Below, in pieces: positions 1,052 through 4,670 of a stretch of 64,000 nt of DNA. This DNA is from Escherichia coli (GTDB taxonomy: Bacteria > Pseudomonadota > Gammaproteobacteria > Enterobacterales > Enterobacteriaceae). The DNA lies in NCBI RefSeq assembly GCF_041248615.1, contig NZ_CP158426.1, one strand, 5' to 3'. A program made the translations under genes and the position numbers. Below the pieces are notes generated by a model, which worked only from the letters and a program-made list of their open reading frames with translations, was not told the origin of the DNA and ran no database searches. Every line of letters begins with the position of its first letter. Position 1 is the stretch's first letter.

Positions 1052-2242
1052 TTAAGCTGCATTCCCTTTCGCTATCGGAGCCAGTGCCGCAGGCAACTCT
1101 TTACCCAGCCCTTGCACCAGCGAATCTTGCGTAATTTCGCTAATCGACTTCGCGCCAGTCAGCGTCATTGCCACTTTCATCTCTTTTTCGATCAGATTCA
1201 GCAGGTTAGCTACACCCGCCTGGCCCGCTGTTGCCAGCGCATACAGGAAAGCACGACCCAGCAGTACGGTGTCGGCACCGAGCGCAATCATACGCACGAC
1301 ATCAAGCCCGTTACGAATCCCGCTATCTGCCAGAATGGCAATATCACCTTTCACCGCATCCGCAATAGCGGGCAATGCACGAGCGGAAGAGAGTACACCG
1401 TCCAGCTGGCGGCCACCGTGGTTAGAAACCACAATCCCATCAGCACCAAAACGTACTGCATCGCGCGCATCTTCCGGATCGAGGATCCCTTTGATCACCA
1501 TCGGGCCATCCCAGAAATCGCGGATCCACTCAAGGTCTTTCCATGAGATGGATGGATCGAAGTTATTCCCCAACCAGCCGATGTAATCTTCCAGTCCGGT
1601 CGGTTTGCCGAGGTAAGCCGAGATATTACCTAAATCATGTGGACGACCGTTCAGGCCCACATCCCACGCCCATTGCGGATGCGTCACCGCCTGCAAGTAA
1701 CGGCGCATTGCCGCATTTGGGCCGCTCATACCCGAGTGTGCATCACGGTAACGCGCGCCCGGTGTCGGCATATCCACGGTGAAAACCAGCGTCGAGCAGC
1801 CTGCCGCTTTTGCTCGCTCCAGCGCGTTACGCATAAAGCCGCGATCGCGCAGCACATAAAGCTGGAACCACATCGGACGTTTAATGGCTGGAGCGACTTC
1901 TTCAATCGGGCAAACGGAAACCGTCGAGAGAGTAAACGGAATGCCATGCGCATCCGCCGCTTTGGCAGCCTGAACTTCGCCACGACGCGCATACATGCCA
2001 CACAAACCCACCGGAGCCAGCGCCACCGGCATCGACAATTTCTCATTAAACAGCGTCGTTTCCAGGCTTAAGTCAGACATGTTTTTCAGAATACGCTGGC
2101 GCAGCGCCACTTCTGACAAATCTTCCACGTTGCGGCGCAGCGTGTATTCAGAATATGCACCCCCATCCATATAGTGGAACAGGAACGGCGGCAGAATGCG
2201 TTGTGCTGCGGCGCGATAATCGCTGGCTGCGGAAATAATCAT
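1052..2242 (-). CDS. lldD: L-lactate dehydrogenase (FMN-dependent alpha-hydroxy acid dehydrogenase)
   Basis: 396-aa ORF; FMN alpha-hydroxy-acid dehydrogenase signature (…SNHGGRQLD…); operon position after lldR. Confidence 0.96.
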
Positions 2243-3015
2243 GCGTTTTTCTCCCTCGAATGCTCATTATGGTCACCAGGCAGGCGGGTAATGCGTGCAT
2301 GGCGAGCTTGATCTTCATCGAATCGTTTCATGGTGGTGTGAACAAAGCTAAGGTGCGCCATCATTGCTTTACGCGCCCCGTCAGCATCACCGGCAAAAAT
2401 GGCGTCAATGACTGCCTGATGTTGTTCGGTCAGCTGTGAAAAAACCGGGGGTACCAGATACATTCGCTGGCGGCTATGCTTCACAGAGGATTGCAGGACA
2501 TCGAAGAAACCGCGCATGGTTTGCAGCAGCACGATGTTATGTGAGGCTTCGGCAATCGCCAGATGAAAACGAACGTCCGCTTGTGAGGCGAGATCCGGGT
2601 CTTCACTTAGCGTTGCTTCAAAGCAAAGCTGAATTTTCTCTTTTTCGCCTGGTGTGGCGCGCATTGCCGCATGCCACGCGGTGCTGGCTTCAATGGCGTA
2701 GCGGGCTTCCAGAATATCGAAACTGTAATCCGGATCATCGGCCATCAGCGTTTTCAGCGGCTGGACGATGTTTTGCTCCGACCATGTGTCATGACGCCAG
2801 CGAATAAACGTCCCGCCGCCGCGTCGACTAAGCAGCACGCCTTCGCTCACCAGTTTTGCCAGCGCCTCGCGCAGTGAATTACGTGATACGCCGAGTTGCA
2901 TCGCCAGTTGACGTTCAGCGGGCAACTTCATGCCCGCCTCCAGGTTTTTTTCATCAATCAGCGCCCGCACACGATCGGCAACCTCGTCTGACAGGCGTCT
3001 GGGTAAAACAATCAT
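2239..3015 (-). CDS. lldR: GntR/FadR-family transcriptional regulator of the lld operon
   Basis: ORF 2239..3030; chosen start is the internal ATG giving [16 protein letters not shown]... (258 aa); N-terminal HTH region; its ATG overlaps the lldP stop (TAATG). Confidence 0.92.
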
Positions 3016-4670
3016 TAAGGAATCATCCACGTTAAAACATAAGCCTGAAGCGTGGTGATCACGCCCACCATACAGGTGAAGATCAGGCTGTGTTTGACGG
3101 TAAAGCGGAACAGATCTGACTCTTTGCCTACCAGGCCTACCGCCGCACAGGCGATAGCGATAGATTGCGGAGAGATCATCTTACCGGTGACACCACCGGT
3201 GGTGTTGGCGGCAACCAACAACAGGTCAGAAACGCCAATTTGTTGTGCTGCAGTGGCTTGCAGGGCGGCGAACAGGGCGTTAGATGAGGTATCCGATCCG
3301 GTCAGGAAGACACCAAGCCAGCCGAGGAACGGCGAGAAGAAGGTGAATGCATGGCCGGTGTGCGCCAGTGCCAGCGCCAGCGTTGATGATAGTCCGGAAT
3401 AGTTCGAGATAAAGGCGAACGCCAGCACCATACCGATGGAGTAGATAGGCAGAGCCAGTTCTTTCAGCGTGCTGCCGAAGGTGCTGATAGCGTCAGATGG
3501 TTTCATCTTCAGCCAGACAATCGAGAGCAGGGCAGCAAAAAGAATGGCGGTACCGGTGGCAGAGAACCAGTCGAACTTAAACACGGCGGCATACGCTGTC
3601 GCTTCGCTGACCACTGGCGGCATACGGGCAACCAGTTTATCGAGGTACGGCACCGGAATATTGATCACCCATTCATACAGCGCACCACCCGAAGCGAACA
3701 GGGCTTTAAACGGTGGAATACTCCACAGCGTTACGGTGGCGGTCAGGAACAGGAACGGTGTCCAGGCGCGAAGCACCTGACCTGCGGTGTAACCGGTGTG
3801 AGCCAGCGTCATATCAACCTGTGACGCCCCCAAGTCACCGAAGCGGAATACGCGCACTGGTTGCCAGCGTTTGAGGAACAGCGTCAGGCAGAGCAGTGAT
3901 ACCAGCGAAGAGATAATGTCTGGCAGTTCCGGCCCAATGAAGTTAGAGCTGAGGTATTGAGCAATGGCAAACGAACCACCTGCAACCACGACCGCAGGCC
4001 ACGTCTCTTTGATACCGCGCCAACCGTCCATAATCGCCATGATCCAGAACAGCACGATAATGGTCATAAACGGCAGCTGACGCCCCACCATCTGACCAAT
4101 CTCAAAGCTGTCGATGCCTGTTACCTGCCCGGCGACCAGAATCGGAATACCCATCGCGCCAAATGCCACTGGCGCGGTGTTAACAATCAGGCACAGTCCG
4201 GCGGCGTACAGTGGTTTAAAGCCCAGACCGACCAGCAATGCGGCGGTAATTGCTACCGGTGCGCCAAAGCCTGCGGCTCCTTCAAGGAAAGCGCCGAAAC
4301 AGAAACCGACGATCAGCATTTGCAGGCGCTGGTCAGGGGTTATCGAAAGAATAGACGAGCGGATGATGTCAAACTGCCCGGTTTTCACCGAGATCTTATA
4401 GACGAACACCGCTGCAATAATGATCCACGCGATGGGCCACAAACCGTAGAAGAAGCCATAAATCACCGAGGCCAGCGCGTTAGCGACCGGCATTTTATAG
4501 AACAGCAAAGCCACGGCAAGGGCGATTGCCACCGTCCATGAGGCGGCGACATAACCTTTGAGTTTGAGCTTAATCAGCGCAAAGAAGAAAAACAGGATGG
4601 GAAGCGATGCTATCAGGCTGGAAAGCCAGATATTCCCGGCGGGATCGTAGTTTTGTTGCCAGAGATTCAT
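3015..4670 (-). CDS. lldP: L-lactate permease (LctP family)
   Basis: ORF 3015..4697; start placed at [18 protein letters not shown]... (551 aa); multi-TM permease; first gene of lldPRD. Confidence 0.95.

Follow-up and report, generated by a model that had tools for sequence, protein, structure and literature searches.

Stop/start overlaps between adjacent genes of five operons in an Escherichia coli genome segment and their relation to translational coupling

Introduction

The classical examples of coupling across a stop/start overlap in E. coli are the trpE-trpD and trpB-trpA pairs, for which the work of Oppenheim and Yanofsky in 1980 and of Das and Yanofsky in 1984 and 1989 is said to have established translational coupling; restoration of the overlap reportedly restored the coupling as well. 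The lct (lld) operon was reportedly described by Dong et al. in 1993 in a paper with the title "Three overlapping lct genes...".

Native E. coli pairs with a spacing of -4 have been studied directly, and four of the five tested (hyfHI, astDB, ydbH/ynbE as well as menDH) were found to be coupled, while bioBF was not (Huber et al. 2019, PMC6728339). When the SD motif was removed, reinitiation fell by 60-90% or more in those four, and bioBF was unaffected (Huber et al. 2019, PMC6728339). On the genome scale, 707 of the 2987 unidirectional gene pairs of K-12 (24%) are spaced at -8 to +6 nt, the most frequent spacings being -4, -1 and -8 (Huber et al. 2023, PMC10666635). Coupling drops steeply as the spacing or the overlap grows, and none was observed at -25 (PMC10666635, PMC12548453).

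In the present study, eight overlapping gene pairs noticed in a 64,000-nt stretch of an E. coli genome (RefSeq assembly GCF_041248615.1, contig NZ_CP158426.1; hereafter, the window) were compared with the curated K-12 annotation, with related loci of other genera and with the published data on coupling.

Materials and Methods

Feature coordinates in the window were taken from the RefSeq annotation of a stretch 100% identical to it, positions 192001-256000 of the chromosome of E. coli isolate NRZ14408 (NZ_LT599825.1), and the start codons, the stop codons and the 34-nt junction sequences were read directly from the DNA. For each downstream gene, the reading frame was traced back to the nearest in-frame stop codon, and all candidate starts were scored for pairing to the 16S rRNA 3' terminus. 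The accessibility of the RNA was estimated as P(unpaired) over positions -15 to +6, the overlapped starts being compared with operon-first starts as controls.

A degenerate DNA pattern designed on the helix-turn-helix region of LldR gave 54 loci from Citrobacter, Salmonella, Kluyvera, Kosakonia, Pluralibacter, Trabulsiella, Enterobacter, Intestinirhabdus and other Escherichia species. When metagenomes were scanned with a XylH motif, 120 loci were recovered, and the xylG/xylH junction was present in 115 of them. Three of the 115 were not classified by the SD rule, namely L124, where inspection by eye found the start and the SD kept at a spacing of -4, L080, which carries a frameshift, and one further locus.

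Results

Geometry of the overlaps and agreement with the K-12 annotation

The RefSeq gene order in the window is cysE-trmL-lldDRP ... mtlRDA ... selAB ... sgbE-sgbU-sgbH(ulaD)-lyxK-yiaONMLK ... xylRHGF/xylAB, and the overlapped pairs belong to what we take to be five known operons, lldPRD, mtlADR, selAB, yiaK-sgbE and xylFGH (Table 1). The eight overlaps described in the initial annotation, including their sizes, the TAATG junctions and the GTG start of sgbU, were all read in the window sequence as described. In curated K-12 (MG1655, NC_000913.3) the genes have the same lengths, and they overlap by the same 1, 4, 1, 4, 4, 8, 7 and 23 nt; the start of lldP agrees between the two annotations too. 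Differing curated starts, which the initial annotation had named as grounds for refutation, were thus not found.

Table 1. Overlapping junctions and related features of the window (aSD dG in kcal/mol)
Feature	Position	Strand	Description
lldR/lldD junction	2239..2242	-	ATGA, overlap 4 nt; aSD dG -8.5
lldR CDS (GntR-family regulator)	2239..3015	-	258 aa
lldP/lldR junction	3013..3017	-	TAATG (ccTTAATGatt), overlap 1 nt at 3015
lldP CDS (L-lactate permease)	3015..4670	-	start ATG at 4670, stop TAA at 3015-3017
mtlD/mtlR junction	12027..12031	-	TAATG (caaTAATGgtg), overlap 1 nt at 12029
selA/selB junction	29526..29529	+	ATGA, overlap 4 nt; aSD dG -6.4
sgbU/sgbE junction	40551..40557	-	ATGTTAG, overlap 7 nt; aSD dG -10.3
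sgbH/sgbU junction	41404..41411	-	GTGCGTAA, overlap 8 nt, GTG start; aSD dG -11.3, strongest SD in the set
lyxK/sgbH junction	42063..42066	-	ATGA, overlap 4 nt; aSD dG -7.7
baxL leader ORF	53328..53354	+	MIKSDQET*, intact; TGATG, overlaps bax by 1 nt
xylG/xylH overlap	56701..56723	-	23 nt; xylH ATG at 56723, xylG TGA at 56701-56703; aSD dG -8.5
yibI/yibH, yiaM/yiaN, yiaO/lyxK			further tightly spaced pairs, spacing +2 or +3 nt

The overlaps themselves are already known, all eight having been catalogued earlier: Huber et al. 2023 (PMC10666635), in a supplementary file 3 based on K-12, give every pair at an identical distance. The opinion that they represent ordinary operon organisation is supported by the match to curated K-12 at all eight junctions and by the identical published distances. 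Very probably, the junctions are ordinary stop/start overlaps of the kind that joins neighbouring genes within an operon, here in five known operons, and translation begins at the annotated starts.

Two details of the first description needed correction. The span given for the overlaps, 2239-4670, does contain lldR and lldP, but it covers one of the five operons and leaves the other six of the eight junctions outside. All eight listed pairs are real, but the list omitted the 1-nt overlap of baxL with bax; spatially coupled, that is overlapping and co-directional, genes are found in all eight pairs and in baxL/bax, and the same is true of K-12. The baxL leader ORF was left unannotated by PGAP in the window strain and is identical to K-12 b4794; the same supplementary file of Huber et al. 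2023 (PMC10666635) gives its spacing to bax as -1. An Rfam search of the window returned no match.

The overlaps had also been called widespread. The eight pairs are indeed present, but there is no local excess, since 10 of the 34 intact same-strand pairs of the window (29%) are spaced at -8 to +6 nt, compared with the published 707 of 2987 (binomial p = 0.42). These ten tight pairs comprise seven of the eight overlaps together with yibI/yibH, yiaM/yiaN and yiaO/lyxK. A local enrichment of overlaps was therefore rejected, and the window is typical of E. coli, its rate of tight pairs matching the published genome rate.

Start sites of the downstream genes

An overlap can be an artefact of annotation if the true start of the downstream gene lies elsewhere, and in-frame alternatives exist for lldR (GTG at 3030 or 2970), for sgbU (ATG at 41444) and for xylH (a GTG after the xylG stop). 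In six of the eight downstream genes, lldD, mtlR, selB, sgbH, sgbE and xylH, the annotated start is the first start codon of the ORF, and a longer product is therefore not available. Longer options were found only for lldR, sgbU and the operon-first gene lldP.

The upstream GTG of lldR, at 3030, lies five codons before the annotated ATG. This position is CTG in most other genera, and 41 of the 46 non-Escherichia loci lack any in-frame start upstream of the aligned one. The internal GTG at 2970 has a better SD than the annotated ATG (-6.6 versus -3.1 kcal/mol). However, codons 2-15 of lldR evolve in the manner of coding sequence, with a third-position variability of 0.32 versus 0.12 and 0.09 and with no stop codons in 52 loci, and the GTG at 2970 is therefore excluded as the start.

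The longer options for lldP are an ATG at 4697 and a GTG at 4691, and the annotated start has by far the best SD (-7.4 versus about 0). The ATG at 4697 is unsupported: its aSD dG is +0.4, in-frame stops occur within 5-7 codons of the upstream extension in four loci of other genera, and a 1-nt indel between loci (cctgcaATG versus cctgcATG) would shift the frame of the extension. All 37 other loci that extend as far as the start have kept the annotated ATG and its GGAG.

The options upstream of sgbU are the ATG at 41444, 11 codons before the annotated start, and a TTG 30 codons before it. The annotated GTG has by far the best SD of these (-11.3 versus -5.9). The homology between SgbU and UlaE, a curated K-12 paralog, begins at PLGIYEKAL, five residues past the Met encoded by the GTG, and the longer extensions gave no alignment to UlaE. 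In K-12, a further in-frame GTG lies 6 nt upstream and coincides with an alternative in-vitro peak in INRI-seq. The corresponding codon is GGC in the window strain, and this option is thus absent here.

In xylH, an in-frame GTG follows directly after the xylG stop, and its use as the start would turn the spacing into +1. The codon following the xylG stop is not a start codon in 51 of the 100 loci with the -23 spacing, so there is no conserved xylH start at this place, while the ATG of the -23 form is conserved together with its SD. The annotated starts also concur with those of curated K-12, and mis-annotation of any of the overlapped starts was rejected as extremely improbable. On the whole, the start-site choices made initially are borne out by the K-12 agreement, by the first-in-ORF position of most starts and, for lldR, lldP, sgbU and xylH, by comparison with other genera or with a paralog.

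Conservation of the junctions

The lldPRD genes are reported to form a single transcription unit. Outside the window, the lldP/lldR junction is (A/G)TGA, i.e., a spacing of -4, in 44 loci and TAATG in five Escherichia loci and in Intestinirhabdus. The two forms are three bases apart (ccATGA versus ccTTAATGA), and the C-terminus of LldP, WMIP, is the same in both. The next junction, lldR/lldD, is spaced at -4 in 41 of 46 other loci, at -1 in three and at +2 in two, both from Trabulsiella; the GGGAGA SD and the ATGA are conserved there within a variable LldR tail. The mtlD/mtlR junction was found in 25 of the loci recovered with the lld pattern, with an overlap in each (21 ATGA and 4 TAATG). Retention of the overlap is strictest at the junctions lacking an SD, lldP/lldR (50/50) and mtlD/mtlR (25/25), where the geometry switches between -4 and -1 and a gap never appears (0/50 loci for lldP/lldR).

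For the SelA-SelB pair, published COG-pair statistics give a median spacing of -4 across 254 species. In the same statistics the xylG/xylH pair, over 514 species, has a median of -0.4 and quartiles at -3.4 and +11.9. In the metagenome loci, the xylG/xylH spacing is -23 in 100 of 115 (39 distinct junction sequences), -8 in 10, -14 in one and -4 in two (L061 and, as judged by eye, L124), and the xylH ATG with its AGGAG is kept in all 112 loci classified by the rule. The 23-nt overlap is unusual, and it stands one base away from the 8-nt form: ATGtcTAAa and ATGtcGAAa are synonymous in xylH, and in the second the xylG stop is lost and xylG is extended by 15 nt.

At the lld, mtl and xyl junctions, the overlap is conserved across genera to a degree far above that expected if unconstrained sequence had drifted. 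This shows that the overlaps are being maintained; they are no accident of a single strain. The paralogous ula operon has another geometry, with ulaD/ulaE at +9 and ulaE/ulaF at -1, and the arrangement of overlaps therefore differs between the sgb and ula operons. The ulaD/ulaE spacing and the +2 spacing of lldR/lldD in Trabulsiella also indicate that the overlap is dispensable at junctions bearing an SD.

Evidence bearing on translational coupling

Seven of the eight pairs fall within the range of spacings efficient in reinitiation, approximately -8 to +6 nt, their values being -1, -4, -1, -4, -4, -8 and -7; xylG/xylH, at -23, is outside. The published lack of coupling at -25 supports treating xylH separately. 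No experiment on any of the eight pairs was found in the literature. These operons are uninduced in standard media. The heading "translational coupling", under which the overlaps were first described, overreaches: an overlap constitutes spatial coupling only, and coupling of translation would be a deduction from it for these pairs.

Pairing with the 16S rRNA is good at six of the eight downstream starts (-6.4 to -11.3 kcal/mol) and almost nil at lldR (-3.1) and mtlR (-0.1). The six good SDs agree with an explanation in which the overlaps result from neutral drift of stop codons in a compact genome and initiation on every downstream gene takes place at its own ribosome-binding site, uncoupled from the preceding gene. 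The switching of xylG between -8 and -23 through one base synonymous in xylH, the spacings of +9 and +2 in the ula operon and in Trabulsiella, and the uncoupled -4 overlap of bioBF (Huber et al. 2019, PMC6728339) point in the same direction. Initiation in a cell-free system was observed at the start of lldD, where INRI-seq shows a strong peak within 3 nt of the ATG, and this start is therefore able to initiate without upstream translation. It speaks against neutral drift that lldR and mtlR have no usable SDs, yet overlap the upstream gene in every one of the 50 and 25 loci from many genera despite the change in geometry. The sharp genome-wide peaks at -4, -1 and -8, together with the experimental dependence on distance, also argue for selection on spacing (PMC10666635). 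Neutral drift as the source of the overlaps is thus rather unlikely in our estimation.

Coupling might also work by RNA unfolding, upstream translation melting a structure that hides the downstream start or SD. Used as a probe for this model, predicted accessibility did not separate the overlapped starts from the operon-first controls, with the exception of sgbU, where such a dependence is possible. P(unpaired) is 0.42-0.58 at eight of nine junctions, inside the control range of 0.33-0.64, and only the start region of sgbU is low, at 0.18, being predicted as mostly paired in the free RNA.

Discussion

The overlaps at these junctions would most likely act through termination and reinitiation. 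A ribosome ending translation of the upstream gene would already sit at the next start codon and could reinitiate there, usually assisted by an SD motif that lies in the final part of the upstream gene. The degree of dependence on reinitiation probably varies among the pairs. Coupling appears most plausible for lldR and mtlR, with their almost absent SD pairing and an overlap in every locus examined. These two regulators, essentially devoid of an SD, probably rely mainly on ribosomes arriving from lldP and mtlD, and such reliance would link the synthesis of the regulator to a fraction of the synthesis of the transporter or the enzyme. The genes lldD, selB, sgbH, sgbU and sgbE, with their good SDs, probably combine reinitiation with independent initiation, and the cell-free peak at the lldD start fits this. 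For xylH, with its strong SD and a spacing of -23, coupling is doubtful and the least plausible of the set; this gene most likely initiates independently.

A stricter proposal can be made for the two regulators, that their translation may be left entirely to ribosomes coming from termination on lldP or mtlD, so that the regulator dosage would be set at a small fixed share of the translation of the transporter or the enzyme. Obligate dependence of this kind would account for the fact that the overlap before lldR and mtlR has never been lost across the Enterobacteriaceae in spite of the flips between -4 and -1. We put it forward tentatively, as a possibility somewhat short of an even chance.

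The value of these results is close to that of quality control: the gene model first drawn for these operons is correct, and the longer ORF options can be ignored. The overlaps leave current understanding unchanged. Studies of overlap evolution may find possible input in the observation that regulator genes lacking an SD keep the overlap most strictly, in the interconversion of -4 and -1 geometries between genera, and in the one-base difference between the 23-nt and 8-nt forms of xylG/xylH.

In comparison with the systems described previously, the lct operon of Dong et al. consists of the same three genes as lldPRD of the window, with the overlap named in the title of that work. The trpE-trpD and trpB-trpA pairs represent classical E. 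coli coupling at a stop/start overlap, the same type of overlap as in the window. The products of the trp pairs are subunits of a single enzyme complex, whereas among the eight pairs of the window xylG/xylH is the sole one that Huber et al. 2023 (PMC10666635) mark as a complex. The catalogue in that work is of K-12; the window belongs to a different strain, and its junction geometry is identical. The coupled pairs of Huber et al. 2019 are co-directional, with an ATGA junction and with the SD lying within the upstream gene, which is the geometry of lldR/lldD, selA/selB and lyxK/sgbH. The pairs tested there include none of those in the window, and three of the window pairs have longer overlaps (-7, -8 and -23), while two overlap at -1 without an SD. 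The bioB-bioF pair of the same study belongs to a native E. coli operon and overlaps at -4, yet it is uncoupled and initiates de novo; hence an overlap by itself is no proof of coupling.

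Translation starts and gene overlaps

The bax gene is preceded by baxL, a leader ORF of nine codons (eight amino acids and a stop), which overlaps the bax ATG by 1 nt (TGATG) and contains the GGAG of bax, as seen in the window sequence. The RefSeq record of the window strain carries no annotation of this ORF.

A start-site difference from K-12 was found at sgbU, the GTG-start gene overlapping sgbH. The K-12 sequence contains an additional in-frame GTG 6 nt 5' of the sgbU start (gagGTGcgcGTG), at which a peak was reported in vitro by INRI-seq, the published cell-free profiling of start sites. 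In the window strain the corresponding codon is GGC, and the alternative sgbU start is therefore lost there.

The 8-nt and 23-nt xylG/xylH overlaps are separated by a single base, tcTAAa versus tcGAAa (metagenome loci compared: L087, L092, L114 and L164 versus L060 and L063), and this change makes or abolishes the xylG stop while being synonymous in xylH. The K-12 annotation includes the xylZ sRNA at the 3' end of xylA; the Rfam search at the gathering threshold gave no match anywhere in the window, the xylA 3' end included.

Coordinates of the features compared (window positions unless stated)
Feature	Position	Strand	Remark
baxL leader ORF (MIKSDQET*)	53328-53354	+	same sequence as K-12 b4794
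sgbU upstream start polymorphism	41411-41420; K-12 locus L003 21226-21235	-	sequence comparison
xylG/xylH overlap	56701-56723	-	
Position corresponding to K-12 xylZ	about 60900-61060	+	
Rhs element adjoining yibF, with the genes 3' of it	17681-27203		Rhs in pseudogene fragments; interrupted by ISEc12 and IS1397
YadA-like trimeric autotransporter (1439 aa) and DUF3251 gene	within 4968-10014	-	between yibL and lldP
mtlA-mtlD spacer	13178-13271		94 nt; 229 in K-12
lldD-trmL spacer	1005-1051		47 nt; 197 in K-12
sgbE-aldB interval	34730-39830		

Relatives of the lld locus

The lldPRD region of L058 (CACSKA010000004.1), titled 'Chryseobacterium sp. 18061', is nearly identical to that of L054, from Citrobacter sp. 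18056, and the L058 assembly is probably mislabelled or contaminated. In Citrobacter koseri NCTC10786 (L041), the LldP, LldR, LldD and MtlR matches are of low identity or fragmentary, a pattern seen in no other Citrobacter locus, which points to either pseudogenes or an indel-rich assembly. When window positions 2000-5000 were compared with E. coli plasmids, 35 places with an lldP-like L-lactate permease segment of about 93% identity were found, for example NZ_AP042667.1 47808-48569.

Gene content relative to K-12

The mtlA-mtlD and lldD-trmL spacers are far shorter than those of K-12, which presumably reflects a different REP-element content. The Rhs element is split by insertion sequences of the IS21 (ISEc12) and IS3 (IS1397) families, with an immunity gene of the Imm57 family and one hypothetical gene lying 3' of it. 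Instead of the yiaT-yiaU-yiaV-yiaW block of K-12, the interval between sgbE and aldB holds hicA/hicB together with genes for a GH127 glycoside hydrolase, an MFS transporter and a regulator of the AraC family. The yibL-lldP interval, which in K-12 is only a 371-nt spacer, accommodates the DUF3251 gene and the YadA-like autotransporter, which carries the name UpaG in the annotation of Nissle 1917.
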